Virus record (IMG/VR): IMGVR_UViG_3300036879_000022 | Location: 20,383 to 84,382 of that record | Length of the DNA: 64,000 bases | Source: a virus | Reading direction: 5' to 3' (one strand) | Part shown: positions 38,685 to 61,453 of the stretch, piece by piece | Layout: every line of letters starts with the position of its first letter | Numbering within the stretch: position 1 is the stretch's first letter | The notes under the pieces: generated by a model | Told to the model about the DNA's origin: nothing | The model's input: only the letters and a program-made list of their open reading frames with translations | The model's database searches: none | Position numbers and translations under genes: made by a program

Positions 38685-39656
38685 GTGACCCCCTTCGGTA
38701 TTTTTGGAGTGGCAGTTCTTGCGGTCCTCGTGATCGTGATCCTCGCGCTCACATTCTCGCCGCGACGCAAGCGTCGTCCCGGCGACGGCGAGATGGTCGA
38801 TCTCTGGGACGGTTCGCACTTAGACCGCTCTGGCCTTCCACGTCCCGGCTTCAACGCCAAGGGCGAGTATATTCCATTCCCGCCGCCCGCGTACTCCCCC
38901 GTCGCGCTCGACAAGATGCGCGATCGTTTCCGGGACGGCGGCCTCGCGCATTCAATCCCGCGTGCGGAGCCCCCGGCCGCTGCAAATGCCTATCACACGG
39001 CGAAGGGTCCGGTGCCGCCGAGCTTCGGCAAGCGCAAGCCCTCGATCTTCCTGACCCCGCGCCAGTTGGAGCGGGTCAACATTCAGCGCAAGCTTCAGGG
39101 GCGCCAGCCGCTCAACCGGCGGGGCTTCACCAACGCGGTCGCCCATGCGTGGGACCAACATGAGAGCACTCATCCCACGCGCCAGAGCCAGCCGGTCAAT
39201 ACCGGAGATTGGTTGACGTACCTCATCCTGTACGAATGCCTGTTCGATGACCACTCGACGGGCCGGACCTACGTCGATACCGGCCTGACGATCACCCCCG
39301 AGGCCCCCTACAACGGGCACGGGGGCGAGTTCGCCGGGGCGGGCGCATCCGGTGACTGGGCGAGCCCGACCGCATCCACGGCTGCGGCTGCGGCGGCTAT
39401 CGCGGCTGACGGGGGCGCGCCGTTCCCCGCCCCGCAATACACCGATGACAATGCGCCTGAGCGCGCCGTCGAGCCGGCCATCACCGGGAACGGCTACCAC
39501 TTCACCGACCCGGCGCCGTCAACTCCGAGCTATACACCGGACCCCGCGCCGTCAACTCCGAGCTATACGCCGGACCCGTCGCCCAGCTACTCGCCGGACC
39601 CGAGCCCGAGCTTCGACAGCGGCAGCTCGTCTTCGGGCGGCGGCGACGGCTCATGA
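38685..39656 (+). CDS. Membrane-anchored protein with GGEFAGAGASGDW motif and Pro/Ser/Tyr repeats
   Basis: N-terminal TM; tandem DPAPSTPSYTP repeats. Confidence 0.75.
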   Translation: MTPFGIFGVAVLAVLVIVILALTFSPRRKRRPGDGEMVDLWDGSHLDRSGLPRPGFNAKGEYIPFPPPAYSPVALDKMRDRFRDGGLAHSIPRAEPPAAANAYHTAKGPVPPSFGKRKPSIFLTPRQLERVNIQRKLQGRQPLNRRGFTNAVAHAWDQHESTHPTRQSQPVNTGDWLTYLILYECLFDDHSTGRTYVDTGLTITPEAPYNGHGGEFAGAGASGDWASPTASTAAAAAAIAADGGAPFPAPQYTDDNAPERAVEPAITGNGYHFTDPAPSTPSYTPDPAPSTPSYTPDPSPSYSPDPSPSFDSGSSSSGGGDGS

Positions 39657-40193
39657 GATGCCTCGACGCGAGCGATCGTGAAAAACTGCTTGACCTCATC
39701 GTGGAGGCCAAGTTAGTAGAGATCACCTACGCTCGCGTCGAAGACGGCTCGATCTATTGCACCATTCAACGAAGGAAGAACCCCCATGGCGACCTCAGCC
39801 GAACAACTGATCCTGCGCGGATTGAACCTCGTGATCCGGGCGAGCTTTTCACCGAATGATCCCGCTGGGCAGGCGAAGCACTTCGCCGCGCTGACGCAGG
39901 ACATCGGACCGTGGTTCAAGGACTACGCCGAAGAGATTGCGAAGCCCGCAGTCGATTGGAGTGTTGATTTCCAGGAGGCGACCGAAGACGGCGACCTGCA
40001 ACAGTGAACCCCTACAGGGTCACATGGGCGATCGAGCACACGCCTGACGGCTCCTATGTCGTCGAGCGCGAGACCGATCGCCCCGTGACCGTCTACGGCC
40101 CAATGCCCGCTGCTCTCGTGACCGCGTTCATTCGCGATCGGGAAGCAGTGATCCGAGAAGTTTTTCAGGCGCATCTTAACAGGAGTTTCCTTC

Positions 40194-40604
40194 ATGGCCA
40201 AAACCCGCCGCAAGAAGATTAACAAGTCCCCCAGCCGTCCGTATCGCAACGCCAAGGCGTTCATCGCCGACAGGGGCGACATGATCACCACGGCCGGCGT
40301 GCGCGGACGCACCAAGGTCGTGCGCGTGCGCGACGAAAACGACAAGCGCGTCACGTCGGTTCGGTCCGTCATGGTCGTGCCGCAAGTCGCGGCGAAGACC
40401 GGGAGAGCCCGCGACGCCGAGGGAGCCCCGACCAACAAGCCCCGGGGCATCTTCGTGGGGCGCTGGTACACTGGCATCGCGCGCAGCAAGGTCTACCCGA
40501 CGCACGGCGCGAAGCGCGGCGGCGTGGCACCCAAGCCCGCCGGGCTCATGGCGCGGGCTGCCAAGGCGGTCAAGCGCGTGGTCGTCCGGGACGGAGCCAA
40601 GTGA
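40194..40604 (+). CDS. Highly basic protein
   Basis: Arg/Lys-rich, 136 aa, AGGAG RBS. Confidence 0.7.
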   Translation: MAKTRRKKINKSPSRPYRNAKAFIADRGDMITTAGVRGRTKVVRVRDENDKRVTSVRSVMVVPQVAAKTGRARDAEGAPTNKPRGIFVGRWYTGIARSKVYPTHGAKRGGVAPKPAGLMARAAKAVKRVVVRDGAK

Positions 40605-41329
40605 TGCAGACGGCTATCGAAACCGAGTACCAGCGCCAGCGCATCATTGGCGTCGCTGACGCGATCCGTGGGCTACAGGCGTGTGGCGACGAGCGCCGCG
40701 CAATCCAGTTGCTCATTCTGAGATTTCCCGAGGCCGCGCGGTACGTGCCGATTGGCAGCCGCATCGGCGAGCCGAGGCTGACGCCGCGAGCCGCGATCTC
40801 ATATCGCGAGGGCACGGTCCACTACTGGCGCCCCGGCAATGATGGATACGCGGACAGCACATGGTTGGTACCGCAATGAATAGCGTTGACGCGAAGGGCA
40901 AGCCCCTCAAGATCGGCGACGAAGTCTATTGCTTCATCAAGGGCCATGGCAGCGAAGGGTGTTTTGGTTTCATCATCGGCGTGATGAGCTACGCGACAGA
41001 TGCGGATGACGAGGTTGTCTGCATCGCATCGGAGCAATACTCCGGCATGCCAGTGAACACCGCGCATCTCCAGCGCACGGGCGAGCACCGTCCGGACGTG
41101 GCGCGAGCGCGGCGCGAGCAGTATCTCATGCAAATCCCCGGCGCATTTAAGCCGGAATAGAACGTGGCGAAATTATGAAAAACGACCCCGCGAGTAGATC
41201 AGTGACGGAGCGCGAAGTCCTTATCCGAGTGACCGCCAGTTTGGCCGCTGCGATCTCGATACTGGAGCGCATACCGGGCGCACCGAAGGCCGTTGCATCG
41301 GACAAGATGTTCAAGCAGATGATCGTGGA

Positions 41330-41500
41330 CTATACGCGCTCGCTCAATGCAGCGCGGTCGCTGCTACGCGGAGCGGACTGATCTAATCCGACCCATGCGA
41401 GCCCGAGCTGTTGCTCAGCGGTGCGCTTGCGGACGTTCTCGAACGCCGCCCGCTGGAGCCTTGCAAGCTCCAGCGTGATCTCTTCGTGGATGTCAAACAT
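41330..41500 (-). CDS. Small protein homologous to the C-terminal cargo of 49190-49405
   Basis: MFDIHEEITLELARLQRAAFENVRKRTAEQQLGLAWVGL. Confidence 0.65.
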   Translation of the reverse strand: MFDIHEEITLELARLQRAAFENVRKRTAEQQLGLAWVGLDQSAPRSSDRAALSERV

Positions 41501-41504
41501 CGGA

Positions 41505-42629
41505 CTAGGCTTTCCGGTAAGAGTTGATGAGGCCGCCGACCGACGCCGCGTAGTACGCGACGTAGTCGCCCTCCGGCTGTTTCTCCGTGGCGGCGCAGAG
41601 CCGGTCGAATTTCCGGTTGGCCTCGTGCCGCGTGCAGTAGACGCTTTCGGTCGAATGCGCGAAGTGATTGCACACGACGAAGGTGAACATTTCATTTTCC
41701 ATTTTGCTTCTCCAGTGCTCTCACGATGGTCATGATCTCGACGGCGCGGCCCTGACAGTTGCCCAGCGTGCGCCGCCATTCGATGCCGAAGTGGTGCGTC
41801 AGGTATTTGTGCGCGTCGTGATCATAGACGCTGATGCCGAAGCCCGCGTCCGTGCTCTTGACGATGTCGAACTTGATGTTGCCGTGCTTGGCATGGTATT
41901 CGTACATCGGACGGCCCGAGTTATCCTCGCCGTCGTTCTCGCGCGTCCATTCCAGCCCGGCGACAACCTCCCATGCTTTCTTCGGCTTGCGCCGACAGAG
42001 AGCGGGGAAATTGTGTCTATGCACGGCCTCGGCAGACATGCTGCGAAACCGTTTGCCACATCGGCATGACAAGTCCATAGCTCAACCCTCCAGTGACGCT
42101 TTGCAGGCGGCCAGCGAGACGAATACTTCGCCGCCGAGCTTGTCGCCCTTGGGGTAGTAGCACCACCCGCCGGTCACAAGGTGGGGGACGCGGGCGCCCG
42201 TTAAATGCCTGATAGTGCCGACGCGACGGCCGGCGATGAAGACCTTGACTTCGGTGTAGGTCTCATAAGTGATCGTGCTCATGGTGTGCTCCGTTAGAAG
42301 TTTGCGCTGTCGTCGAACGAGAATGTCCGAACGTCCTGTGTTTCGTCACCATCCGCGAAGATGACAACGTCGCCTTCCGCCACTTCGTCAACCGCACGGC
42401 GGTCCCAGAAGCGATGGATAAAATCGGGTCGGCCCCATGTCTTGATCGCGTTCCAGTAGCGATCGTCCTTGAAGCCGACGAAGTGAAACGCACCGCGCTC
42501 TTCGTAGGGCGTGCCGCGCGTGACCTTCTGCCAAGCAGCGCGCGTCACGTAGAGCCCGCCATCGGCCCGGCGCTCGACGACGCCGCTGTCGATCAGGGAT
42601 TGATGCGGGTCTTCCCCGGGACCGTGCAT
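41505..42629 (-). other. Leftward mini-operon of four hypothetical ORFs (41505-41702, 41692-42078, 42082-42282, 42294-42629)
   Basis: Closely spaced ORFs with GGAG RBS. Confidence 0.65.
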
Positions 42630-42694
42630 AGCTCAGCTCCAGAGTTTGAGGCGGCGCCTGCGATAGCGGGCAACAGAGTTCGCTAGAGAAACTG

Positions 42695-42795
42695 TGGAGA
42701 GGTCGGAGGGTATCGAACCCTCTACGCCTGCGGGGCGTGTCCGATGTAGGCCTTGCATCCGCTTCCCGCGTTCCGGGGATGGGGCCGTCGATCTC
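42695..42795 (-). ncRNA. tRNA top-half mimic (acceptor + T arm + CCA, atypical lower half)
   Basis: GAGATCG/CGACCTC (1 mismatch)+TCCA; T arm GAGGG-TTCGATA-CCCTC; promoter TTGCAC-16-TATGTT at 42833-42806. Confidence 0.6.
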
Positions 42796-43855
42796 TTGTG
42801 TCCCCAACATACACGCTGCCCCCGGCCGTGCAAGGCAAACCGATGCTTATGGTTTACGAACCGTGAAGACCCTTGCAGAATAGGCGTTAGCGAAGCGTTA
42901 ACCACGGCGAGCGGTTTGACTTGCGAGCCGCGATGGCATGCGCTACATCGGTGGGTATAAGAGATGGAGCAAAGCAAGTGACCTACGAAGTGAGCATCAA
43001 GACCCAATACGCGCAGGCCGATAGCGTCTTTATCGAAGCGGCTACCGCGAAAGACGCGATATCGAAAGCCCGCCGGACCGCTCGTCTTGAAGGCTGGTTC
43101 TGTCTCCGCAATGACGGGCGTGTTACCTACACAGTGGTTAAGTGATGCATTTACGCACCGTCAACAACGTGTTCTCCGCCTCGAAGCTCCCGATCGAGCT
43201 TGTCAAGGGCAAGGACTATCTGTACCTCATCTTCGATGACGGCACGCGCTACGACACGCTGTCCATCATGGTGCCGAGGCTCAACGATCTCACGCTCGCG
43301 CAGTGGGTCGAAGAGGGAAAACAATTCGCCGCGAAAATGGAAAGCAAATGAGCAAGCGCAAAACGATCCAGATCGCCGACCTCAAGGCGAAGGCCAACAA
43401 GGTCTTCCGCGAAAGCGAAGATGATTATGCGGACGGTCGCCGGCACATCCAGAACTTCGTCGAGAACGTCTTGATGGAGGCCGATCAGTACAAGGGCTTC
43501 GGCTACCTGAGCAAGGACAAGGTCGCCCCGGGCAAGACGTTCGGGATCGAGTTCGTCGGCAATGAGCCTAAGTTTCATGACCATACCCGGATCGAGTTCT
43601 TTTAACCACGATCAACGGTTTGAATTGACCCGATGTCAGCGAACGGCTACATCGGGGAATGTCACCGAAAGACGACACCATGACCAAGAAGTTCAAAGTT
43701 CAAAAGTGCGTGGCCCTCGCCGGCAAACTGCCGAGCGGCGTTCGGGTCGGGCGCGTCTGGGAGACGATCGGCACCTATGGGCGCCGGGCCGTTGCCGAGC
43801 GCGTAGCGCAGAACCTTCGGCAGGACTTGCACGACAACGAAGTGAGGATTTCACA

Positions 43856-44149
43856 ATGAAACGTATCTTGCTCGCCGCTGTCGCGGCGACTGCACTGTCC
43901 GCTTCGGCGTCTGCCGGGGGGTTGCAGTTCAACTGCCGGTCCACGAGCTACTACGGCACCTACAACGGTGGCTGCTCGCTTGAGGACATCAAGGACCCGA
44001 AGAAGCTGACTGAGGAAGAGATCGCTGCGCTCAAGGTCGAAGACGACAAGTGGCTGGCGTTCTGCAAGCCGGTCAGGCAGCCCGACGATGAAGGTGTCAT
44101 CCGTTTGCGCTACGCGCACAAGGGATGTGAATTTGGCAGGAGCGAGTGA
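43856..44149 (+). CDS. Secreted Cys-containing protein
   Basis: Signal peptide MKRILLAAVAATALSASASA; FCKP..RYAHKGCEFG. Confidence 0.7.
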   Translation: MKRILLAAVAATALSASASAGGLQFNCRSTSYYGTYNGGCSLEDIKDPKKLTEEEIAALKVEDDKWLAFCKPVRQPDDEGVIRLRYAHKGCEFGRSE

Positions 44150-44870
44150 TGAACGTCCATCTTACACCGGACATGCTGATCAACCGGGCGCCCCATAAGC
44201 CGCTGTCGCCCTTCAAGGTACGACGGCGCGGAGCGAACGCGTTCTGGGATGCGGTCAAGCAGGACTATCCCAAATACGCCGATGCGCAAGAACGCGCCGA
44301 GCGCGAGCGGGATAAATTTGATCCGAGCTACCATGCGCCCAAGACTGCAAGGGTTCACGCGGGCGAGCAGATCACTGGCGCATTCATTCTGGGATGGAAA
44401 GACCGATGGACAAATACCTCGGCGAGGCCTACGAAGAGTTTTGGCAGAACTATTACCCGGAGCAGCACAATGGCTGACCTTCTCAAAGACGGCGCCCGCA
44501 AGCCGCGTATCCTCGGCGGCACATGCTACACCGCCAACAACTACGACCGCAACGAAGTCACCGAACGCGGCGTCATGCCCGGGATGTGCTATGACCTCAC
44601 GATCAGCGGCAACACGAGCTACACCGCTCGCCTGACCGAGGTCGAGATGCTGCGCACCATGCAGGAGTGGTTGACGCGCTACAACGCGCATCAGGATCAA
44701 AAGCGGAGGCATGCCCGTGTCTCCGCTTGAGGGCATCCCGGAGTACCTGAAAATTCCGCAGGACGAACGCAAGGCCGCGTGGGAGAAATTCCGCGCGGAT
44801 CGGAAAGCTCTACCACCGGAAGCGCCGCCGGCTATCAGGCGCATCACCGATCTGCCCGGAGCAAAGCACC

Positions 44871-45251
44871 ATGACGACCCCGACGCTTGAAGATACCATC
44901 CGCAGTCTCGCTGCCCGAGGGGAGATTTCGCATATCTCGCTTACCCCATCGCAGGGGGGCAGGATGTGGCGCGCATCGTTCACGATGTGCTCGCACTTTG
45001 GCGTCAGCTTCGCCGAGGACAAGGACCCGGTCGAAGCGCTCATGCTCGCGTTCACGAGCGCGAAGCTCAAGAAGCCTCGGGCCACGCTCAACCTGAAACC
45101 GGAGCCTGAGCCGGCTGACGCGAGCGACACCAACGATGCGGATGGACCCGCCCCGGGAAACCCGATCGCGCCGCTGGCCAATGTTGATGGCGGCGTCACG
45201 ATCGACTGGAGCACGGGGCAGGCGATCGACCCCCTCAGCGACTTGATGTAG
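44871..45251 (+). CDS. Hypothetical protein ending SDLM
   Basis: 126 aa with GGAG RBS. Confidence 0.65.
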   Translation: MTTPTLEDTIRSLAARGEISHISLTPSQGGRMWRASFTMCSHFGVSFAEDKDPVEALMLAFTSAKLKKPRATLNLKPEPEPADASDTNDADGPAPGNPIAPLANVDGGVTIDWSTGQAIDPLSDLM

Positions 45252-45258
45252 TCGGGGG

Positions 45259-45298
45259 CTAATTCCCAGTTGTCTCCGGGAACGTTGCGCGCTAAGTT
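45259..45298 (+). promoter_or_regulatory. Promoter with conserved CTAATTCCCAGTTGTC element
   Basis: TTGTCT-17-TAAGTT; identical 16-mer at 50335. Confidence 0.7.
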
Positions 45299-45329
45299 CA
45301 ACGCCCAATCGCCACCCGGAGACACGCCC

Positions 45330-45578
45330 ATGGCCCGCCTCAAAGCCAAGACCCGCAACAAGCTCCCCGCCTCGAAGTTCGGCCTGCCCGGTGCCAAGGG
45401 CAAAGGCAAAGCCAAGGGCAAATACCCGATGCCCGACAAGGCCCATGCGGAGGACGCCGAGGGCCGGGCGACCCAGATGGTCGCGAAGGGCAAGCTGTCT
45501 CCCGAGCAGGCCTCGAAGATCAAGCACAAAGCTGAAGCGGTCCTCGGCAAGCACGACTGCAAGTATCACAACTGTTGA
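45330..45578 (+). CDS. DUF6582-like small basic protein
   Basis: RNKLPASKFGLP..KYPMPDKAHA..A..RA.Q pattern. Confidence 0.7.
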   Translation: MARLKAKTRNKLPASKFGLPGAKGKGKAKGKYPMPDKAHAEDAEGRATQMVAKGKLSPEQASKIKHKAEAVLGKHDCKYHNC

Positions 45579-45590
45579 TCGGAACGCGCC

Positions 45591-46085
45591 ATGGCAAAAG
45601 ACGCCCTCGGACACGGTAGCGAAGGACGCGGCGCGCATGCGGGCGCGGTCGCGCGTGTTGGCTTGCAGAACCCGAACCACCCGATATACAACACGGCGCA
45701 GAAGATGCGCGGCTACAATGGCCCGATCTCGCCGCTCACTGCCGACTACAGCACTGGCGGCAGGATGCTGCGGGATCGCACGAGCGGCATGACGAAGGAT
45801 GAGCACATGGCTGCGGGCGATCAACACGCCCAACAGTCGGGAGCACTTCGCGCGGCCCACGGTGGTGCTGTTGATACGGCGATGCGTGGCCTTCAGGGGC
45901 GCGACCCCGGCCCGCTGATCTCCGGCATCGTCTCGGACAAGTTCTCGGCCAGCGACAAGGGCAAGCTGCGGGACTTGGCTGTCGGCTCCGGCAAACACAC
46001 GAGCGCAGCGTTCGCGCACTACGCCGCCGCTGGAATGCGGATCGGCACCGCACGCACGCGGTTTCACTCAGTAAGGGGTACGTGA
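45591..46085 (+). CDS. KDALGHGS-leader protein 1
   Basis: MAKDALGHGSEG. Confidence 0.85.
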   Translation: MAKDALGHGSEGRGAHAGAVARVGLQNPNHPIYNTAQKMRGYNGPISPLTADYSTGGRMLRDRTSGMTKDEHMAAGDQHAQQSGALRAAHGGAVDTAMRGLQGRDPGPLISGIVSDKFSASDKGKLRDLAVGSGKHTSAAFAHYAAAGMRIGTARTRFHSVRGT

Positions 46086-46086
46086 C

Positions 46087-46458
46087 ATGAAGGACGCACT
46101 CGGACACGGATCGAACGATCGCGGCGGCGCAGGCCTCCACTCGGCTGGCGTGCAAGCGACGCCCCAGCTTCAGCGCCGGCACTTCGAAGCCATCGCAGCC
46201 GATCTGAAGGCGCAGGCTCCAAAGTCGTGGGGCGACAACAGCTCCAAGGCGAACTCGGACGCGAACGGCGCACACATGGCCAAAGTCAATGATGTCGCGG
46301 ACAAGCTCGCGATGACCAACCCGGGCTTCCGCCGAGATTTCTTCGTCAAGGCGGCGACGCCGGGCGGCGCGTACAATAACAAATCGCGCGAGCGATCGGC
46401 GACGAAACCGGGCTTCGCGTCGAAAGTGAGCAGGGCGAAGAAATTCGCAGGGATGTGA
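46087..46458 (+). CDS. KDALGHGS-leader protein 2
   Basis: MKDALGHGSND. Confidence 0.85.
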   Translation: MKDALGHGSNDRGGAGLHSAGVQATPQLQRRHFEAIAADLKAQAPKSWGDNSSKANSDANGAHMAKVNDVADKLAMTNPGFRRDFFVKAATPGGAYNNKSRERSATKPGFASKVSRAKKFAGM

Positions 46459-46461
46459 GCC

Positions 46462-46782
46462 ATGAAGGACGCACTCGGACACGGAAGTAACGGCGTCGGC
46501 GCGCAGCTTCGGCAGCGGATCGATGCGGATCGGCATATGTTCGGCGGACCCCGTCCGACGCTCCTGCGCGACAACACGTCGAACGCGCAGGCCGCGCGAT
46601 CTCTCATGGGCAGCTTGAAGTCCACCATGGTCCCCGTGCACGACAGCATGGCCGGCCGCGCATCGAACCCGACCTCGCAACGCGGGCCGACTGATCTGGG
46701 CAACCGGATCAAGTCCGCTGTAGGGCGCGGATCGAACTCGGAAGATCGCGCGGCGTTCGCCGCATGGAACGGACTGAAATGA
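46462..46782 (+). CDS. KDALGHGS-leader protein 3 with PVHDSM motif
   Basis: MKDALGHGSNG; AARSLMGSLKSTMVPVHDSM. Confidence 0.85.
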   Translation: MKDALGHGSNGVGAQLRQRIDADRHMFGGPRPTLLRDNTSNAQAARSLMGSLKSTMVPVHDSMAGRASNPTSQRGPTDLGNRIKSAVGRGSNSEDRAAFAAWNGLK

Positions 46783-46961
46783 AACGGCACAAGCGGGTCA
46801 CGAACAAAGACGCGGCGAGAGAGCTTTCGAGCGGCTACGGCCCGGCCCCGGTTCACCCCGCAATGGTTTCCATGGCGACGGTCTACGCGGCGGACAAGGA
46901 CCCGGCTGCAAACGCAACGGATGCATCGGATGACACGGACGACCAAGGCGGAAGTGACTGA
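46779..46961 (+). CDS. Array protein with PVH motif only
   Basis: DAARELSSGYGPAPVHPAM. Confidence 0.7.
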   Translation: MKRHKRVTNKDAARELSSGYGPAPVHPAMVSMATVYAADKDPAANATDASDDTDDQGGSD

Positions 46962-47112
46962 TCAGGACGTGAAGGTCCATCTCGCGCTCGGCGGCGGCAA
47001 ATCTCACGAGGCGCCGATCCATCCTGCGATGATCGGCAAAGGGCAGAACAAACTCGAAGTCGGCTCAACTCTGGGCTATGGCATCGGATCAGCGATAGGA
47101 GCGGGCACATGA
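46954..47112 (+). CDS. Array protein with PIH motif only
   Basis: GTG start; LALGGGKSHEAPIHPAM. Confidence 0.65.
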   Translation: MTDQDVKVHLALGGGKSHEAPIHPAMIGKGQNKLEVGSTLGYGIGSAIGAGT

Positions 47113-47582
47113 AAGACGCACTCGGACACGGAAGCAACGGCGGCTGGGGCCAGCATCCCGCCACCGGAAAGCTGAAGACCGCTTCGAAGTATCAGTCGTT
47201 CAACGGACGCATGGACGCCGTCGTCCGGACCGAGCGTATGCCAGCCGGACATCTCTGGCAGCATGGAAATCAGTATGGCTACGCCAACAGCGTGGCCGAC
47301 GCCAAGGCGACCGTCGAGAGCCGCGTTGCCGACGAAGACCGATACAAGACGCACGAGCCGGTCACCACGTCACAGTTCGACGGACCGCGCGAGCGGTCGG
47401 GGCTGGGCAACGCGACGCACAACGAGAACGGTCACGCATGGGGATCGCCCGAGGCGCTGAAAGACTTCAAGGACAAATACAACCGGGGCCGTGCCGAGGG
47501 CAACGCGAAGAACCGGGCAGAAGGCAAAGCGTTCCGCAGTGCCAAGGGCGAGATCAACCGTCTCCGCAAGCAGGGGAAGTGA
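47109..47582 (+). CDS. KDALGHGS-leader protein 4
   Basis: MKDALGHGSNG; SQFDGPRERSGLG. Confidence 0.85.
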   Translation: MKDALGHGSNGGWGQHPATGKLKTASKYQSFNGRMDAVVRTERMPAGHLWQHGNQYGYANSVADAKATVESRVADEDRYKTHEPVTTSQFDGPRERSGLGNATHNENGHAWGSPEALKDFKDKYNRGRAEGNAKNRAEGKAFRSAKGEINRLRKQGK

Positions 47583-47583
47583 C

Positions 47584-48009
47584 ATGGCGAAAGACGCAAA
47601 AGGCCACGGGTCCAACAGCCACGACTATAGCGGCGTCAAGACCTATCCAGCTATCACAGGCTTCGAAGGTCTCCGCAAGTCGCTCAATCTGGACGCTCTT
47701 CAAGCGGGCGGTCAGCCGGTCTCTGGCAACGCCAACGCAGCTCACGAGCTTTCGAGCGGCGGTCCGAAGTCGGTAGCGTCTCCGGTCCATGACAGCATGG
47801 TCGGCGCGAACGTGTCGCAGTTCGACGGACCGCGCGAGCGGTCGGGGCTGGGCGCGCACGACCAAGCGGTCAAGGATTTCAAAGAGGGTCGGATGACGCA
47901 CGGCGACATCCCGCCTCGGACCCCGTCCGAGCGAAACGTCAAGGCTCTCAATGAGAGCACGGGCTACCGCATTCGCAACGGCACCCTTCGCGGCAAACCC
48001 GGGAAATAA
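47584..48009 (+). CDS. KDAKGHGS-leader protein 5 with PVHDSM motif
   Basis: MAKDAKGHGSN; AAHELSSGGPKSVASPVHDSM; SQFDGPRERSGLG. Confidence 0.85.
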   Translation: MAKDAKGHGSNSHDYSGVKTYPAITGFEGLRKSLNLDALQAGGQPVSGNANAAHELSSGGPKSVASPVHDSMVGANVSQFDGPRERSGLGAHDQAVKDFKEGRMTHGDIPPRTPSERNVKALNESTGYRIRNGTLRGKPGK

Positions 48010-48022
48010 CGGAGCAAGTGAC

Positions 48023-48514
48023 ATGAAAGACGCAAAAGGTCACGGCAGCAATGAGCGCGGCGGCACCAAGCCGAACGCAAAGGGCATGCGGCTCATCAAG
48101 ACCCATGTGCTCGGGCCGCACTCAGCGAAGGTCTACAACAATCCCGAGTGGGGCGAGAAGGTCGTGCAGACGTTCCGCAACGGCGTCTATCAGTCGAAGA
48201 ACGACTAGCACACCGACGATCTCGCGGACGCGCATGCGACCGCGCAATCGCAGTTGAAGCGCTGGGACGATCAAGATGGCGGCGGTGGCATGATGGGGGC
48301 CATGAAGGCCAAGCTTTCCGACGATATCGCCGCCGGCCGCATGCTGAGCAGCGGCGGCCCGAAGTCGGCGGCGGTTCCGATCCACGACAGCATGCAATCC
48401 GCGTCTCGCGCGTTCTCGGACAAGAATAACGAAAAGTGGGGCTCGTATGCTAACGTCGGGAACGCAAAGGCGAATGACGCCGTGTTCGGTTCCGGACGGC
48501 ACAAGCTCACGTAG
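48023..48514 (+). pseudogene. KDAKGHGS-leader protein 6 interrupted by an in-frame TAG (48206-48208)
   Basis: MKDAKGHGSN..SKND*HTDD.. continues in the same frame to LSSGGPKSAAVPIHDSM. Confidence 0.75.
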
Positions 48515-48526
48515 GGGCAGCACGAG

Positions 48527-48781
48527 ATGAAAAACGTTCGCGGTACATCGGGGACGAACCGGCTCGCTGACGAGGGGGCGCGCGGCTTTGTGACGGCTCC
48601 CGGAGTGCGCGGCTTCGCCACGTCCACACAGAACACCGACGCGGCCAACGAGCTGGCCAGCGGCCCGAAGTCGCGCATGGTACCGGTTCACGACAGCATG
48701 AGCGGCTACAACGGCGTGCCGGTCCCGAGCGATAACATTCAGGACATGGCGCGGCAGCGCGGATATCAGGCGGCATCATAA
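48527..48781 (+). CDS. Array protein with PVHDSM motif
   Basis: DAANELASGPKSRMVPVHDSM. Confidence 0.8.
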   Translation: MKNVRGTSGTNRLADEGARGFVTAPGVRGFATSTQNTDAANELASGPKSRMVPVHDSMSGYNGVPVPSDNIQDMARQRGYQAAS

Positions 48782-49002
48782 TGGCACCAATGCAACGGAT
48801 TTCCAAGCCGACCCACTCGGTCGGGGTCACGATCGCCGTCCCGCATACGCGGTTCGCGCCGACGCCGAATATGTCGCCGCTGGAGATCGCGTTCCGGAAG
48901 GGACAAGAGGCTAAGCGCCTCGGCCGTCCGGCGGAGAGCCCGCACACGGACAATGAAGTGGGCGAGCTTGCAAAAGAATGGGAACGGGGATATGGGTCAT
49001 GA
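48781..49002 (+). CDS. Hypothetical protein
   Basis: AFRKGQEA..SPH..EWERGY; coupled to neighbours. Confidence 0.65.
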   Translation: MAPMQRISKPTHSVGVTIAVPHTRFAPTPNMSPLEIAFRKGQEAKRLGRPAESPHTDNEVGELAKEWERGYGS

Positions 49003-49193
49003 ACATGATTTGGGTAACAGCGCCGAACGGGGTCAGGTTCGAGATCGACCCCGAGAAGATCAGCGTCCTTGAGCCGGCTCAGCCGGGCATGTACGCGCCG
49101 GGAGCGAAGGCGGTTTTTCGCGTCGATGGCGAGATGCATGCAGTCAAAGAAACCGTCGCTCAAATCGACACCATGCGTGGGGCGGGAAAATGA
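48999..49193 (+). CDS. FlbD-like small protein
   Basis: IWVTAPNG..IDPEKI..VKETVAQI resembles the FlbD family pattern. Confidence 0.55.
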   Translation: MNMIWVTAPNGVRFEIDPEKISVLEPAQPGMYAPGAKAVFRVDGEMHAVKETVAQIDTMRGAGK

Positions 49194-49405
49194 AGGACGC
49201 TCTGGGGCACGGGAGCGTGAGCAATGCGGACGCGGCGAATGCGCTTGCGAGCGGCGCGAAGTCGGCGATCGTTCCAGTCCATGCTAGTATGAGCGAGGAC
49301 ACTGCACTCGAAATATCGCGGCTCGAACGCCGCGCGTATGAGAACGTTAGACGGAAAGCAGCTTCGCAACAGTTGGGCGAAGCGTGGAAGGGGCTAGGTC
49401 AATGA
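49190..49405 (+). CDS. KDALGHGS-leader protein 7 (leader + PVH motif + cargo)
   Basis: MKDALGHGSVSNADAANALASGAKSAIVPVHASM, then a homolog of 41330-41500. Confidence 0.85.
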   Translation: MKDALGHGSVSNADAANALASGAKSAIVPVHASMSEDTALEISRLERRAYENVRRKAASQQLGEAWKGLGQ

Positions 49406-49656
49406 AGGACGCTCTGGGACACGGCAGCAACCCGCAAGGCTTGATGGTCGCGCACCAAACGGGAGTGCGTAAGGCGATCGGCTTCAAGGTCGAGAAGCAT
49501 CTCGCGTTCTCCGGCAGAACGGCCGCCGGCCAGCGCAACCTCGCGACCGGCAACGTCTGGGGCAAGGTCGCTGGCGGCAAGCGGCGCGCGGTCGCGGAGA
49601 AGATCGCGATGGGCGCGCGAATTGACAACCCGAACTCAAGGATCAGGATCAGATGA
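49402..49656 (+). CDS. KDALGHGS-leader protein 8
   Basis: MKDALGHGSNP. Confidence 0.85.
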   Translation: MKDALGHGSNPQGLMVAHQTGVRKAIGFKVEKHLAFSGRTAAGQRNLATGNVWGKVAGGKRRAVAEKIAMGARIDNPNSRIRIR

Positions 49657-50108
49657 AAGACGCACTCGGACACGGAAGCAACGGCCTGCACGCGGGCGGC
49701 GTCAACAAGATCGGCAATCTCCCGGTCCACCCGAACGAGCTGCGCACGATCCAGAAGAACCCATGGGGCGCGAGCGTGAAGCCGCAGACCGGTGTCTCGC
49801 CGACGACCGGGTACATGGTTTCGATACAGGGCCGCACTCAGAGCCCGACCTCGGCGGCGCTCGCCGGTCCGCAGGGTGCGAGCATCATTCGCGACTACGC
49901 GCGCAACAACTCCGATCTGTTGCAGAAGCCTGACATGCACATCGGGAGCCGGGCCGACGAAACCGGTCGCACGCATCTCGACGTGTCGCAGAACATCCCT
50001 GATCGCGCGACTGCTGTCCAAGAGGGGCGTCGTCGCAATCAACAGGGTATCTGGGATGTTGCCCGCAAGAAGTTCATCGGCACGGGCGGCACGGGAGACG
50101 CGGCATGA
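49653..50108 (+). CDS. KDALGHGS-leader protein 9
   Basis: MKDALGHGSNG. Confidence 0.85.
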   Translation: MKDALGHGSNGLHAGGVNKIGNLPVHPNELRTIQKNPWGASVKPQTGVSPTTGYMVSIQGRTQSPTSAALAGPQGASIIRDYARNNSDLLQKPDMHIGSRADETGRTHLDVSQNIPDRATAVQEGRRRNQQGIWDVARKKFIGTGGTGDAA

Positions 50109-50338
50109 TCAGTGCAACGAAGAGCCACGTGAAGTGGGATCGCGGCAATCGGAGTGTGACCGATGACGAAGCTGCTGACGTTCTTGCAAATGGCCATCCG
50201 AAGAGTGGTCCGCCGAGTTTTCCTGAGCCCGCTAAAGTTCTGCCGGGCGCGCCGGGCGCTGGCGCGGCTCCGGGCGCGAACGGCCCGCCTACGACAGGCG
50301 CGTCGGTAGGTCCGGGCGGGCCATTGGGTTCGATCTAA
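50105..50338 (+). CDS. Array protein with degenerate second motif
   Basis: VTDDEAADVLANGHPKS. Confidence 0.7.
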   Translation: MISATKSHVKWDRGNRSVTDDEAADVLANGHPKSGPPSFPEPAKVLPGAPGAGAAPGANGPPTTGASVGPGGPLGSI

Positions 50339-50374
50339 TTCCCAGTTGTCCCGGAGAAGCTCTCCGCGTATGCT
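50335..50374 (+). promoter_or_regulatory. Promoter with conserved CTAATTCCCAGTTGTC element
   Basis: TTGTCC-17-TATGCT. Confidence 0.7.
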
Positions 50375-50410
50375 TGCGAAGAAATTCCAACTATCGCAAG
50401 GATTATGCAC

Positions 50411-50779
50411 ATGGCACTTCGTGGCTCAGGCGTTGTAGCAAAGACCATCGATCCCCCGATGCAGGATCGCATCTCCAACAGCCCCGTCGATCCGCGCGCT
50501 GGCGCCGCCAAGCGGACCCAGACCAAGTTTCCGGTCAAGCCGGGCATGACCGATATGGTCAAGGGCTCCGTGTCATCGTTCGCCGGCCCGAAGAACCCGG
50601 GCGTCGGCCCGGATGCCTCCAGCTCCAATCCGCTTGACCCGTCGCCGACCGACAAGATTTTGCGTCGGCAGCCGCAGGAGATCAAGTCCTCGTGGGGCAT
50701 GGTGGACGCCAACGGTCAGTCGGTCAATGGCAACCTCGGCAAGGCCATCCTCGACGAAGCCGGCCGCCTCGGCCGCTAA
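50411..50779 (+). CDS. Hypothetical low-complexity protein
   Basis: ORF directly downstream of the promoter. Confidence 0.7.
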   Translation: MALRGSGVVAKTIDPPMQDRISNSPVDPRAGAAKRTQTKFPVKPGMTDMVKGSVSSFAGPKNPGVGPDASSSNPLDPSPTDKILRRQPQEIKSSWGMVDANGQSVNGNLGKAILDEAGRLGR

Positions 50780-50935
50780 CCCATGCCAACCCCCGCATGC
50801 TCGTGGCAAACCTTCTGCGGCTTCTTTCTCGCCGCATTCGGGGCCGCGACAGGTTGGGGGATGGGCCTCTTCGTTGTGGCCCAAGTCACGCGAGCCATCG
50901 TGCGGCTGTTCGGCCTAACCTGAAAAGAGACGACC

Positions 50936-51220
50936 ATGGCGATTGATGTAGTCGGAAGCAAAATGAAGTCGGACAATGGCTATGGCCAGAACGGCTATAG
51001 TGGAAGTTCGAGCGATCTCCCCGGCCAGCACACTACCTCCGGCTTTCTGCCGCAGGCCACTGTGCCAGCCGACTGGGGCCAGACGCGCCCCATGTCCGCC
51101 GAGCAGAAGGTGCCGACCACGAAGGGCATGCGCTCGCGTAGTGGCGAAGGCGGAGTGATCCCGGCCGCCAATACCCGGCGTGCGGCCAAGCCCGCGCCCA
51201 ATCGTTCGTTCCAACGGTAA
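50936..51220 (+). CDS. Hypothetical low-complexity protein
   Basis: 94 aa, NGYGQNGY. Confidence 0.65.
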   Translation: MAIDVVGSKMKSDNGYGQNGYSGSSSDLPGQHTTSGFLPQATVPADWGQTRPMSAEQKVPTTKGMRSRSGEGGVIPAANTRRAAKPAPNRSFQR

Positions 51221-51277
51221 CCCTTCCGGGGCGCTACGCGCCTCGGTTTCAACAGTCCCGACCATGGAGAGCCCAAA

Positions 51278-51589
51278 GTGTTGAAACTCGCATCGCTGTC
51301 CCTCGCTGCGCTTCTCTCCGTCGCTTCCCCCGTCCTCGCCAAGCCCCCGATCGCTGCGCCGCCCACGGCGAAGTGCATCGCACCGACCAAGTTTCCAGAC
51401 GCCATCCGCGTCGAAGGCGCCGCTCTCGTCAAGCTCCGAGAGATCGCTCGCGGGCTCCCGGATCAAGTCGATCTCGTGCTTCTGCTCAAGACCGCTCCCG
51501 TCGCCGTCGCCTTCGTCAACGGCTGCGCGGTCGGCTTCGGGCAGCTCGCTCCCCTCGGGCTGAAACCCGCCGATGATGGAGCGATCTGA
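51278..51589 (+). CDS. Secreted hypothetical protein
   Basis: Signal peptide, two Cys, GGAG RBS. Confidence 0.65.
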   Translation: MLKLASLSLAALLSVASPVLAKPPIAAPPTAKCIAPTKFPDAIRVEGAALVKLREIARGLPDQVDLVLLLKTAPVAVAFVNGCAVGFGQLAPLGLKPADDGAI

Positions 51590-51739
51590 GATGGCCGAGA
51601 AAAATAACACGTGCGCTCCGTCGAGTTACGAGAAGCGCCTCCAGCGGCAGCTCGCGGGTATCGAGAAGCATCTGGAAAATTTCCCGAATGACAAGCTGAG
51701 CCAGATGCGCGCAGCTACAATCCGATCGGAGCTATCAAA

Positions 51740-52006
51740 ATGAGTTGGTCGATCTCAAAAATGGGGCTCTCGAAGCCCGTCCTCGCCGCGATCAAGAAAG
51801 AGCGCGCCACTACGGAGATGAGCGAGCCCGAACAGCTCGTCAGAGACCTCGTCGTCGGCGCGATCAAGCTCGCGCTCCGCGACATGCCGGATGATATGCC
51901 GGTCGAGATTTCCGCAAGCGGAAGTCAGTCCGATGTCGGCGACGGTACGTCAGTGAATTCGTTCACGGTCACCGTCACGCCGAAGTGGGGCTTCCTGAGC
52001 AAGTGA
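51740..52006 (+). CDS. Hypothetical protein
   Basis: MSWS..ISASGS; GGAG RBS. Confidence 0.7.
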   Translation: MSWSISKMGLSKPVLAAIKKERATTEMSEPEQLVRDLVVGAIKLALRDMPDDMPVEISASGSQSDVGDGTSVNSFTVTVTPKWGFLSK

Positions 52007-52121
52007 TACAGAACCTCGGATGTAGCTGAGCTGCACCCGACGTTTCGTATCAGAATTACGCGAGCGCGCATGTGCGCCTCCCATCGGCTGGGCCGATGCA
52101 CGACTATTGGAGGATATCCGC

Positions 52122-52946
52122 ATGAGCGGCATTGATGACACCGATCTCGCTGATCTTCTCGGCCCCGATCCACTCGGTGCCGAAGCCGAAGAAATTCTAG
52201 TTGATGTGACCCCGCCGAAATCGCGTCCCATGGGCGCAGCGAGCCGAGGCGTCCTAGAACGATCGCGCAGCTACCCCGTCAACGCTGCCGCCCGAGCAAG
52301 GCTCCCTGACCGCCTCAGCCGTCTGCTCAAGAACATCTCTGAAATCCCGATCGCAACGGACGCCGCGCGCCGCGCCGGCATTAGCCTGTCCCAGCTCAAG
52401 TATATGCTGCAAAAATCCAAGGAGGGTCGCTCCGGGGACGGGTATGACGTGGCCCTTCCGGAAGGCGAAGATAACGGCACCCCCGATAACACCGAACGGT
52501 TTCACGTCGTGTGGGAAGATGCGATGAGTGAAGGCCTCGGCAAAGCAGAGACGGCCGCGTGGGCTCTCGGGGTCGGCTTCAACGAAATCCAAGCTCACAA
52601 GGGTCGTGTCCAATACCGAATTGACCCGGAGAAGTACGATCTGTTCGTTCTGCTCGGCGACCCCATTGACGAGCGCAACCCGAGCCTATGGCTTCGCGAT
52701 GAAGTTGGGGCTCCAGTCCCCGAGACAATCTTCAAGCAGGACCCGGATATGCTCCGGTGGCTGCTCGAAAACCGCAAGCCGAAGGAATATGGCAAGCGAG
52801 CTGCTCTCGATCTGAATGTTACGGGCGGTGTTCTCGTGGTCGGTATGAAGGCGGCTACGTCGGAAGAGCTAAACGAAATCGAAACCGAATATCGCAAGGT
52901 CGGTCGTCCCGCCGTCACGTTCGAAGAGAGCGACGGGGACGTGTAA
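52122..52946 (+). CDS. terS: Probable terminase small subunit
   Basis: AARRAGIS HTH-like segment, DMLRWLLENRKPKEYG; coupled to terL. Confidence 0.7.
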   Translation: MSGIDDTDLADLLGPDPLGAEAEEILVDVTPPKSRPMGAASRGVLERSRSYPVNAAARARLPDRLSRLLKNISEIPIATDAARRAGISLSQLKYMLQKSKEGRSGDGYDVALPEGEDNGTPDNTERFHVVWEDAMSEGLGKAETAAWALGVGFNEIQAHKGRVQYRIDPEKYDLFVLLGDPIDERNPSLWLRDEVGAPVPETIFKQDPDMLRWLLENRKPKEYGKRAALDLNVTGGVLVVGMKAATSEELNEIETEYRKVGRPAVTFEESDGDV

Positions 52947-54535
52947 TGGGTTTTCCTTGCGTAGCAAAATTTGTCCAAGATAGGAATGGGGCTTACGTCC
53001 CATACTATCTTGACGACGACAATGTACTCAGGGCCGCGATTTGGTGCCCGCAACCGGGTTCGCAGGAGTTCTTTCTGGCGGACCCGACGATGGAAGTTCT
53101 CTACGAGGGCACGCGCGGCCCCGGCAAAACTGACGCGCTCATCATGGACTTCTGTCAGGATGTTGGCAAGGGCTGGGGCGCGGAGTGGAAGGGCATTCTG
53201 TTTCGACAATCGCATCCGCAGTTGCGCGACATCATTGAGAAGTCGAAGAAATGGATCAAGCGCATTTGGCCGGATGCGATCTACAACGAAGTCAAGACGA
53301 TGTGGGAGTGGCGGACAGGCGAGCGCCTGTACTTTGCCCACTTCAATGTCCGAAGCGACTATGACAACTATCACGGCCACGCTTATCCGTGGATTGGTTG
53401 GGAAGAGTTGACGAACTGGCCGAGCCCGGACTGCTATATCAGCATGTTCTCGTGCTCGCGTTCGACGATCAAAGGGATGCCGCGCAAGGTGCGCGCGACG
53501 ACGAACCCCTATGGCGTCGGGCATAACTGGGTCAAGGCACGTTGGCGGCTGCCGATCAACGGCGAGACGATCAACGGCCGCAAGCCGACAGTCGGTCCGC
53601 TCATTCAGGATAGCGTTGATGCGGCGGGTAACAAAGAGCCGCCGCGCCGCGCCATCCACGGCTACCTCGACGAGAACGTGCTGTTGCTGCATGCCGACCC
53701 CGAGTACAAGAACAAGATTAAAGCGGCAGCCCGGAACGCATCCGAACTCGCGGCGTGGATGGATGGCTCGTGGGACATCGTCGCGGGCGGCATGTTCGAC
53801 GACATCTGGTATGAGCACAAAGACGCGATCGTCATGCCCCCATTCGACGTGCCGCCGGGATGGAAAATTTATCGGGCCTATGACCACGGCTCATCGAAGC
53901 CGTTCTCGGTTGGCTGGTACGCCGCCAGCGATGGCACCGATCTGAAGCTACGCGATGGGCGCACGCGCGCGACCGTGCGCGGCGACCTCTTCCGTATCCA
54001 CGAATGGTACGGCTGGCGTGGTCAGCCGAACGAAGGCGCTCGATTGTTGGTCCCGGATATCGCGAGGGGCATCATTGAGCGCGAGATCAAATGGGGCCTC
54101 CGTGATCCGCAGGGCACGTGGACCCGCGTGAGCCGGGGGCCAGCCGATAGTTCGATCTTCGACGCCGATCAGAAGGCGACGACCGTGTCGATCGCCGACG
54201 ACTTCGAGAAGCCGGTTACAATCAACGGGATCAAGTTCAAGGGTATTTTCTGGGAGCGCGCTGACAAGGGTCCGGGCTCCCGCGAGCAAGGATGGGAGCA
54301 AATCCGCAAGCGGCTCAAGGCGACCAAACGTCCGCCCGGCGGCTTCCGGGAGACCCCCGGGCTGTTCATCACGACGGACTGCCCGCAATGGCTCCGGTGC
54401 GTGCCTGTGCTTCCACGGGACGAAACCGAAATCGATGACGTAGACGACGACGCGGAAGATCATAACGGCGATGAAACTCGGTACATGCTCCGCCACGAGA
54501 TCAGGACAACACGGTCGGGCCGCGTGGCGGCCTGA
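52946..54535 (+). CDS. terL: Terminase large subunit
   Basis: PQPGSQ, YEGTRGPGKT Walker A, IGWEELT Walker B, ATTNPYG, YDHGSSKP, EDHNGDETRY. Confidence 0.95.
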   Translation: MGFPCVAKFVQDRNGAYVPYYLDDDNVLRAAIWCPQPGSQEFFLADPTMEVLYEGTRGPGKTDALIMDFCQDVGKGWGAEWKGILFRQSHPQLRDIIEKSKKWIKRIWPDAIYNEVKTMWEWRTGERLYFAHFNVRSDYDNYHGHAYPWIGWEELTNWPSPDCYISMFSCSRSTIKGMPRKVRATTNPYGVGHNWVKARWRLPINGETINGRKPTVGPLIQDSVDAAGNKEPPRRAIHGYLDENVLLLHADPEYKNKIKAAARNASELAAWMDGSWDIVAGGMFDDIWYEHKDAIVMPPFDVPPGWKIYRAYDHGSSKPFSVGWYAASDGTDLKLRDGRTRATVRGDLFRIHEWYGWRGQPNEGARLLVPDIARGIIEREIKWGLRDPQGTWTRVSRGPADSSIFDADQKATTVSIADDFEKPVTINGIKFKGIFWERADKGPGSREQGWEQIRKRLKATKRPPGGFRETPGLFITTDCPQWLRCVPVLPRDETEIDDVDDDAEDHNGDETRYMLRHEIRTTRSGRVAA

Positions 54536-60604: not shown

Positions 60605-61453
60605 ATGTTGAAGACAATCTACGACACGGCCGAGGAAATTCCGGAGGGCTATGCCGCTCTCTACACGGAGCGGAACGGCAAATGGGAGTTGACCGGCGTC
60701 ACGGGTGTCAAGACCCAAGCCGACATCGATCGCGTACAGGCCGCGCTCGTGAAGGAGCGCAACGACCACAAGGCGGTCAAGACCGCGTTCGCGCCGTTCG
60801 AAGGGCTCGATCCCGAGGTCATCCACGCGCAGGCGACCGAGCTGGAGGAAACCAAGGCCCAGCTCGCCGCCGTCAAGAAGGATGGCACGATCGACGAGAC
60901 CAAGCTGGAGCCGATCATCACGGCCCGGCTCAAGCAGATCACCGCTCCGATGGATCGTGATCGGCTCGCTCTTGAGCGCCGGCTCGAAGCGCAGCAAAAG
61001 CTCGTGGCCGAAAAGGATGGCGAGGTCTTGAGCCTGAAGACCGCCATCACCACGGGCAACGTCGAGCGCGCCATCCGTGACGCAGCCGGCGAAGCCAAGA
61101 TCGTTTCGACCGCGATCTCGGATGCTGTCTTGCAGGGCAGCCGCGTGTTCGAGGCGACCGAGGATGGCCGCGTCATCACCAAGGATGTCCCCGGGGTTAC
61201 GCCGGGCTTGAACCCGCGTGAATGGTTCAAGGACATGCAGGAGAAGTCCCCGCATTGGTGGCCGGCGTCAGTCGGCGGCGGATCGAAGGGTGGCTCCGGC
61301 CCGGCCGGACGGGCGAATAACCCGTGGTCGCGCGAAGCTTGGAACCTGACCAAGCAGGGCGTCTACCTCAAGGAGTACGGCGAGGACAAGGCCAAGGTTC
61401 TGGCGGAAAGCGTCGGCTCGCACATCGGCGCGACCAAGCCGGCAGCGGCCTGA
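60605..61453 (+). CDS. Capsid scaffolding protein
   Basis: EIPEGYAALYTERNGKW, ALVKERNDHK coiled coil, PHWWP..GGG, NPW..WNLTKQG. Confidence 0.85.
   Translation: MLKTIYDTAEEIPEGYAALYTERNGKWELTGVTGVKTQADIDRVQAALVKERNDHKAVKTAFAPFEGLDPEVIHAQATELEETKAQLAAVKKDGTIDETKLEPIITARLKQITAPMDRDRLALERRLEAQQKLVAEKDGEVLSLKTAITTGNVERAIRDAAGEAKIVSTAISDAVLQGSRVFEATEDGRVITKDVPGVTPGLNPREWFKDMQEKSPHWWPASVGGGSKGGSGPAGRANNPWSREAWNLTKQGVYLKEYGEDKAKVLAESVGSHIGATKPAAA

Follow-up and report, generated by a model that had tools for sequence, protein, structure and literature searches.

Leader-tagged and bare forms of two small protein families in a peat-soil phage genome

A tailed-phage genome from peat soil, the 84,382 base pair record IMGVR_UViG_3300036879_000022 (G000), encodes two related small proteins, one of which carries a conserved N-terminal leader peptide. 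We analyzed the last 64 kilobases (kb) of this record, hereafter the window, whose coordinates are used throughout. The bare gene (41330–41500, minus strand; ATG at 41500, stop codon at 41330–41332) encodes 56 residues and is the last gene of a minus-strand island. The tagged gene (49190–49405, plus strand) encodes 71 residues, its ATG overlapping the stop of the gene before it. It opens with the leader MKDALGHGS (residues 1–9, 49190–49216), continues after a short linker with a second motif, the PVH box (residues 13–34, 49226–49291), which shares 77% identity over 22 residues with the box of the open reading frame (ORF) at 48527–48781, and closes with the module shared with the bare protein (residues 34–71, 49289–49402). 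The module defines a protein family, family 1. In the bare protein its conserved 38-residue core, delimited by alignment A1 and a 94-row family consensus, comprises residues 4–41 (41378–41491, minus strand); conservation stops at GL after Trp, and the 15-residue tail is not conserved. In the tagged protein the reading frame ends right after the conserved core.

The original prediction, made from the window alone, held that the free ORF is a leaderless version of the same peptide found at the C terminus of the tagged protein, the two matching at 19 of 30 positions, and that the KDALGHGS and PVH motifs are portable tags fused to independent cargo, giving a natural control pair. Both strings are present in the window, and the count is correct, although the minus-strand position of the free ORF went unmentioned. 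The full BLASTP match comprises 21 identities and 29 positives over 38 ungapped positions (55% identity between the bare protein and the C-terminal half of the tagged protein), with an expectation value (E) of 6e-15 as a single comparison and of 1e-7 against all 1674 six-frame stop-to-stop frames of at least 30 residues in the record. The DNA of the two cores is just 56% identical, and third codon positions differ in 22 of 33 cases; thus, the resemblance has been kept at the protein level and is not that of a DNA repeat. An inverted repeat linking the opposite-strand ORFs was rejected on the same core DNA identity. "Same peptide" is too strong a wording for copies that are 55% identical, are saturated at synonymous sites, and fall into different clades of a short-alignment tree.

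A profile built from the 38-residue module alignment (A1) and run against 1.84 billion representative proteins matched 87 representatives at E ≤ 1e-3, 15 of them at E ≤ 1e-10, with lengths of 36–115 residues. Both window ORFs built the profile and match it by construction, so the independent support comes from the 85 further representatives, the bare copies in six related records described below, and the 94-row consensus. In the N-terminal core of ~38 residues that members share, an acidic start is followed by a long helix and a QQLGEAW-type cap, and the module begins at most seven residues from the N terminus in 78 of the 87. The nine longer N termini look like over-extended start calls, with the exception of P0001, the only representative with leader and PVH box, which is the tagged protein in a variant reading GQGS. 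The bare protein fits the free-standing form of ~50–60 residues with the module at the very N terminus; the tagged protein departs from that form by its leader and PVH extension. AlphaFold2, run with an 82-row alignment, predicted for the bare protein one helix spanning residues 4–30 (predicted local distance difference test, pLDDT, of 94–99 for the block) followed by a short turn at the cap, and modeled the tail with low confidence. In the tagged protein the predicted helix spans residues 30–65 (block pLDDT 86–98), and residues 1–30 score 62–68. On these models, a family member would be a single helix of ~27 residues with the conserved QQLGEAW turn as its cap; that such a protein acts as a small host-factor binder is a guess.

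Neither Pfam nor PHROGs returned a significant family for the bare protein, the tagged protein, or the leader proteins of the window; the ESM Atlas offered no usable look-alike; and in a word-index search the 71-residue protein matched no protein of similar length but itself and no longer protein. In ten clusters that were looked up, all source names read "hypothetical," except for a 287-residue "ABC transporter permease" in the P0017 cluster, which we take as a clustering oddity. Family 1 is thereby defined as a widespread, unannotated small-protein family of 87 clusters.

The bare gene has a conserved setting. One module copy is present in each of six of the 14 leader-carrying related records (G002, G003, G005, G007, G008, and G011), and all six are bare, the G011 copy being degenerate. 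Five of the six retain the neighborhood, in which the module gene is convergent with a block starting at a conserved basic protein that begins MAKTRR. The upstream neighbor in the window (41505–41702, minus strand, 65 residues) is syntenic with the bare gene in relatives: in G003 and G008 a homologue immediately precedes the module gene, and in both records the small gene just before the module gene encodes a product with a conserved YYCASVGG motif. The convergent neighbor (41175–41381, plus strand, 68 residues), whose 3′-terminal 52 nucleotides run into the tail of the bare gene, has a homologue in the same convergent position in G003. Over the seven copies, substitutions at codon positions 1, 2, and 3 number 207, 163, and 351, respectively, and the G+C content at third codon positions (GC3) of the bare gene is 0.74. 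Judged by its sequence and its setting, the bare ORF is a genuine, resident, vertically inherited gene and not the doubtful orphan of the original prediction. That the similarity arose by chance, or that one of the two ORFs is not a gene, has next to no probability. Both ORFs are very short, and the minus-strand frame 41330–41779 overlaps another gene, but the pairwise E value, the 87 representatives, the conserved synteny, and the excess of third-position changes refute this explanation.

The minus-strand island (41330–42629) consists of five small genes between plus-strand blocks. A Pfam scan of the neighbors of the bare gene gave no match. The C-terminal part of the 111-residue product at 42294–42629 (minus strand), also without a Pfam match, is 61–81% identical to relatives in 11 other viral contigs.

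In the family alignment, the final Met of the PVH box in the tagged protein lines up with the position at which family members start, which makes the junction a clean fusion between a 33-residue cassette of leader and PVH box and a whole protein, and the strongly conserved family-1 positions are all kept in the tagged module. Bare members from elsewhere resemble it at least as closely as does the bare copy of its own genome: beside the 21 of 38 identities to that copy, it shares 24 of 36 positions with P0011 and 24 of 37 with P0015. The bare copy shares 33 of 38 with P0002. In a FastTree phylogeny of 38 columns, the bare copy groups with its G002, G003, G005, and G008 orthologues in an 18-member clade (support 0.93), and the tagged copy falls in a separate 11-member clade (support 0.90). 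This separation, from a short alignment, is suggestive. The tagged gene also has a GC3 of 0.64, below that of the bare copy and of its neighbors. We conclude from these comparisons that the tagged gene is not a recent duplicate of the resident gene but a family member of old or foreign origin that was taken up by the array described below; it was probably acquired from another phage lineage.

In another account, the tagged gene is a functionless by-product of recombination, a foreign copy that landed in frame behind a minimal leader–PVH stub. We regard this as improbable. It would suit a gene that is the sole leader-bearing member among 87, that is found only in this genome and in a ~99%-identical, 24-kb relative (G001, which has both the bare and the tagged gene), that has a GC3 below that of its neighbors, that has a variant with a changed leader His, and that shares its array with a stop-broken gene. 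Against this, the reading frame is unbroken, the fusion falls exactly at the family start, the strongly conserved positions are kept, and 26 contigs, the longest of 106,846 base pairs, are recorded with the identical protein (P0088). Moreover, the next gene carries the tag in the same manner on a member of a second family, and three other phages have conserved this tagged lineage.

This second family emerged when all leader cargos were searched against all frames of the record. The tagged family-2 gene (49402–49656, plus strand, 84 residues) directly follows the tagged family-1 gene, and its cargo matches a bare gene at 43659–43859 (plus strand, 66 residues, GC3 0.76–0.77) at 22 of 56 positions with an E value of 2e-11. 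A family-2 profile (A3) found one copy in each of five relatives (5/5). Three of these copies are tagged with the variant MKDPLGHGS, in which Pro replaces Ala (G002, G003, and G008; loci L055, L052, and L053, respectively), and the copies in G005 and G007 are bare. Because family 2 is a single-copy tagged gene in some phages and bare in others, the tag is dispensable for the core function of the protein. In three large relatives fetched whole, no tagged and bare cargo pair outside the array was found; the window genome has two. The coexistence of tagged and bare forms is thus doubled in this genome and, by the relatives compared, unusual among them.

Both tagged genes belong to a hypervariable array of nine leader genes and several leaderless PVH-box genes (45591–50108, plus strand), located upstream of the terminase (52757) and portal (54610) genes. 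The KDA(L/K)GHG leader heads nine plus-strand ORFs (45591–49675) whose products are otherwise unrelated, the same kind of short N-terminal peptide on diverse proteins that marks the capsid-targeting sequence of phage T4. A scan with the leader pattern, allowing up to two mismatches, gave 11 matches relative to 0.25 expected by chance; the two outside the array have two mismatches each and lie on the minus strand. In a six-frame scan of the whole record, the leader peptide motif was confined to the nine ORFs. The PVH motif occurs in seven ORFs, and three plus-strand ORFs (46764–46961, 46921–47112, and 48527–48781) have a PVH box and no leader; the box is therefore a separate module that also occurs on its own.

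A degenerate leader DNA pattern retrieved 28 stretches from IMG/VR, and 37 with a second pattern. The fetched loci yielded 88 distinct leader proteins with very diverse bodies. Among 79 distinct leader starts every codon varies synonymously, Ser being encoded by both AGY and TCN, and this variation indicates that selection acts on the peptide; the only conserved feature upstream of the starts is a GGAG resembling a ribosome-binding site. Of 25 motif occurrences in 14 further loci, 22 directly follow M, MA, or MP, and one follows a probable GTG start; variants prefixed with MP or MA are common. In L074 and L078, which are the same sequence recorded twice, a short helix-like stretch precedes the motif, which lies 16 residues downstream of the first Met. 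Of the 86 distinct leader proteins with 40 or more residues, 25 have a PVH box, which starts at positions 27–119 and in every case has 24–101 residues after it. The array slot is fixed in 21 of the 28 loci, where it is flanked by relatives of the genes at 44871 and 45270, of those at 50405 and 52107, or of both, followed by TerL, portal, and scaffold genes on the same strand. The upstream flanks, 44871–45251 and 45270–45578, are conserved in most loci, and the latter (plus strand), immediately before the array, matches PHROG 16160 (E 2.5e-18).

The ORFs at 48023–48208 and 48254–48514 (plus strand) correspond to a single 163-residue leader-plus-PVH gene in G001. A TAG stop codon at 48206–48208 splits this gene in the window, and in contigs from two RNA libraries position 48208 is T rather than G, which restores Tyr; the stop is either a nonsense allele or an assembly error in the record. 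Helix-hairpin-helix proteins of 246–258 residues that begin with a single MKDALGHG (G012–G014) were rejected as leader proteins, as their motif is without Ser and no related scaffold or portal accompanies them.

Together, the occurrence of the leader in one of 87 family-1 members, the alternation of family 2 between tagged and bare forms across relatives, and the synonymous codon usage indicate that the leader is, with high probability, a portable N-terminal module that operates at the peptide level on independent cargo. The architectural part of the original prediction, portable tags on cargo, thus gains support from a whole family member placed after the cassette and from the second pair. 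Its natural control pair is real in that a tagged and a bare form are present, twice over, and imperfect in that the copies differ in more than the tag.

The array adjoins the head genes of the phage. The terminase gene TerL (52757–54535, plus strand), the portal gene (54610–56301, plus strand), and the scaffolding protein gene (60605–61453) lie on the same side of the window as the gene for an 804-residue head-associated protein, with DNA polymerase, primase, and exonuclease genes on the opposite side. The nearest cultured relatives of the portal are those of Roseobacter phage RDJL3, PhiJL001, and Nipunavirus-type Pseudomonas phages, at ~45% identity, and the scaffold is similar to that of 9g-like phages. 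On these genes, the genome is classed as siphovirus-like, with a Chi/Nipunavirus-type portal and scaffold. No cultured phage gave a DNA-level match to the pair or array region. A major capsid gene was not recognizable in the window, and Pfam Phage_capsid had no match in four relatives. Downstream of the scaffold gene lie an ORF of 136 residues and then an ORF that runs off the contig end (61933–63999, plus strand, >689 residues), which has collagen-like Gly-rich repeats and matches tail-fiber PHROGs; L001 has the same gene order.

RNA evidence consisted of short Logan contigs from four peat metatranscriptome runs, libraries that may contain DNA and in which gaps prove nothing. An adapter-flanked contig of 168 nucleotides (run X2, depth 18.9) covers the bare gene at 41339–41474 with a 136-nucleotide insert, for which DNA carry-over is possible. 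Further contigs cover parts of the array and none covers 49190–49405, a gap that is uninformative about expression. A scan of 39500–52800 found no promoter-like site and terminator-like sites at chance level only.

We considered what the leader might do. In our preferred reading, to which we assign a probability of roughly 35–40%, the leader would act as a peptide address by which small proteins, otherwise unrelated and mostly basic, reach the particle during its assembly, and the leader proteins would enter the host with the phage DNA. The phage would then possess one version of a protein delivered ready-made at time zero and one made after infection, in the manner of T4 Alt relative to ModA and ModB. 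A complete account that combines two genuine family-1 genes, a captured tagged copy, and a virion-loading leader falls somewhat short of even odds in our estimate. More tentative is a specific version in which a clade of soil and peat siphophages uses MKD(A/P)(L/K)GHGS to load fast-changing small effectors without clipping, two ordinary proteins having been recently enrolled and now being both injected and expressed.

Three kinds of circumstantial evidence favor virion loading. First, the array slot adjoins TerL, portal, and scaffold genes on the same strand. Second, all nine leader proteins are basic, with isoelectric points of 8.2–11.9. Third, some cargos resemble proteins of the virion or of phage entry. 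In a Pfam scan of ten leader proteins from relatives, ART-PolyVal was above the cut-off in two stand-alone proteins, L022:9538–9990 (G002; E 9e-14) and L020:12496–12933 (E 1.5e-9); this domain class was assigned by its describers to proteins injected with phage DNA (PMC5512222). The cargo of the leader gene at 49653–50108 (plus strand), residues 39–147 of its product, aligns with a stretch inside the 1415-residue internal virion protein gp45 of Synechococcus phage Syn5, and with its counterpart in P60, at 30–35% identity (E ~1e-6). This cargo is the commonest among the leader proteins, matched by 16. Among the other leader proteins of relatives, an HExxH-like motif is visible by eye, with no Pfam match. 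A predicted complex of the scaffold (A4) with the tagged 71-residue protein scored 0.00, a value obtained with controls not run and evidence neither for nor against binding.

Several observations weigh against virion loading. Neither the module nor the commonest leader cargo occurs in any cultured phage of a 50,697-record collection, and cultured phages likewise gave no match to the cargo of the gene at 46087. No prohead protease of the Pfam families S78, ClpP, or S77 exceeded the cut-off in four relatives, three of them at least 90% complete, in a search limited to these protease families and with G000 itself incomplete; G005 has a sub-threshold S77 match (E 0.008). The half of the T4 model in which the tag is clipped after loading is thus without an enzyme here. 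The PVH box, at ~20 residues and variably placed, looks more like a docking motif than a cleavage site, and the co-occurrence of the array with one portal and scaffold type may reflect common descent. Small phage genes with a wide range of functions often encode basic products and often adjoin head genes. Just 1.7 kb separates the bare family-2 gene from the array downstream of it on the same strand, in a region that yielded no promoter-like site, which makes an early-versus-late division of the two forms conjectural. Lastly, the tagged family-1 gene is known from this phage lineage only, and the database variant P0001 has Gln in place of the conserved leader His, which fits a young or weakly constrained fusion.

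Alternatively, the leader could be a peptide signal unrelated to the virion, such as an N-terminal degron, a chaperone or protease site, or a docking site for a host factor, by which the two forms would differ in lifetime, timing, or target. This explanation, which we consider doubtful, accommodates a leader that is conserved as a peptide, portable, and predicted with low structural confidence, properties that suit any short linear motif, as well as the lack of S78, ClpP, or S77 matches above the cut-off. It also accounts for the PVH box, a further long linear motif whose variable placement is what docking motifs would show, and for a family 2 that is tagged or bare with a single copy in each genome. 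It sits less well with multi-gene arrays that were seen only in a fixed slot by the packaging and head genes of one portal and scaffold clade, or with cargos that include ART-PolyVal and a podovirus internal-virion-protein domain, both linked in the literature to injected proteins; nor was any link found from the motif to a known degron or host-binding motif.

The leader could also be a plug that attaches interchangeable small proteins to one hub encoded by the phage, on the particle exterior or on a modifying enzyme, such that cargo is displayed or modified rather than injected. External docking in other phages also uses shared N-terminal peptides on diverse bodies, and the tag co-occurs with one structural-gene clade. 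However, the cargos do not resemble binding heads, comprising instead tiny single helices, basic peptides, and an ADP-ribosyltransferase, and no hub gene was identified. We judge this arrangement quite unlikely, and virion loading by the leader remains our preferred reading.

Encapsulins hold diverse cargo against the inside of an HK97-fold shell by means of short conserved cargo-loading peptides, which are usually C-terminal and bacterial; the leader resembles them in being a short conserved terminal peptide on diverse cargo and differs in being N-terminal and viral. To our knowledge, experimentally established capsid-targeting tags are limited to phages T4 and P1.

In T4, passages of one report state that the internal proteins have only their capsid-targeting sequence in common and that adding this tag loads foreign proteins (PMC3012670). 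The leader is similar as a short conserved N-terminal peptide on otherwise diverse small proteins. It differs in its setting, because the phage is siphovirus-like with portal and scaffold kin in RDJL3, Nipunavirus-type, and 9g-like phages and hence is not of T4-like descent; in the lack of a prohead protease (S78, ClpP, or S77) above the cut-off in the four relatives; in the placement of nine tagged genes in one fixed array; and in the PVH box, for which we know of no T4 counterpart.

T4 also offers the nearest precedent for one kind of protein with both a packaged and an expressed version: Alt travels in the head and is injected, and its paralogues ModA and ModB are produced early in infection (PMC2988021; PMC5512222). 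The T4 proteins are enzymes of known activity, whereas the cargo here is a 38-residue helix known from genes alone. In P1, an N-terminal stretch of 30 residues or fewer of DarB is enough to send a heterologous reporter into the capsid; the portion of the report concerned mentions no signal cleavage, and the Dar proteins have no consensus in common (PMC9024508). In contrast, one nine-residue consensus heads dozens of cargos here. Polyvalent proteins, as part of the survey by Iyer et al. (2017) describes them, bear effector domains predicted to be injected with the DNA and are encoded beside portal and terminase genes (PMC5512222). Two leader-tagged proteins of relatives contain Pfam ART-PolyVal and are similar in this respect, but the domains that are strung together in one giant polypeptide there are separate small genes here, each with its own tag.

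What is new here are the natural tagged and bare pairs and the definition of two cargo families; the string KDALGHGS was absent from the papers searched. Family 1 is bare in 86 of 87 representatives, family 2 is mixed, and both forms of each are present in this genome, which adds natural evidence that the tag is separable from its cargo. These pairs make the function of the tag open to a clean comparison between particle and cell. If virion loading is true, the leader would add a new, very compact case to the known capsid-targeting tags, a nine-residue consensus shared by dozens of unrelated cargos in uncultured siphophages, and it would provide a minimal, sequence-defined protein-delivery tag for siphoviruses.

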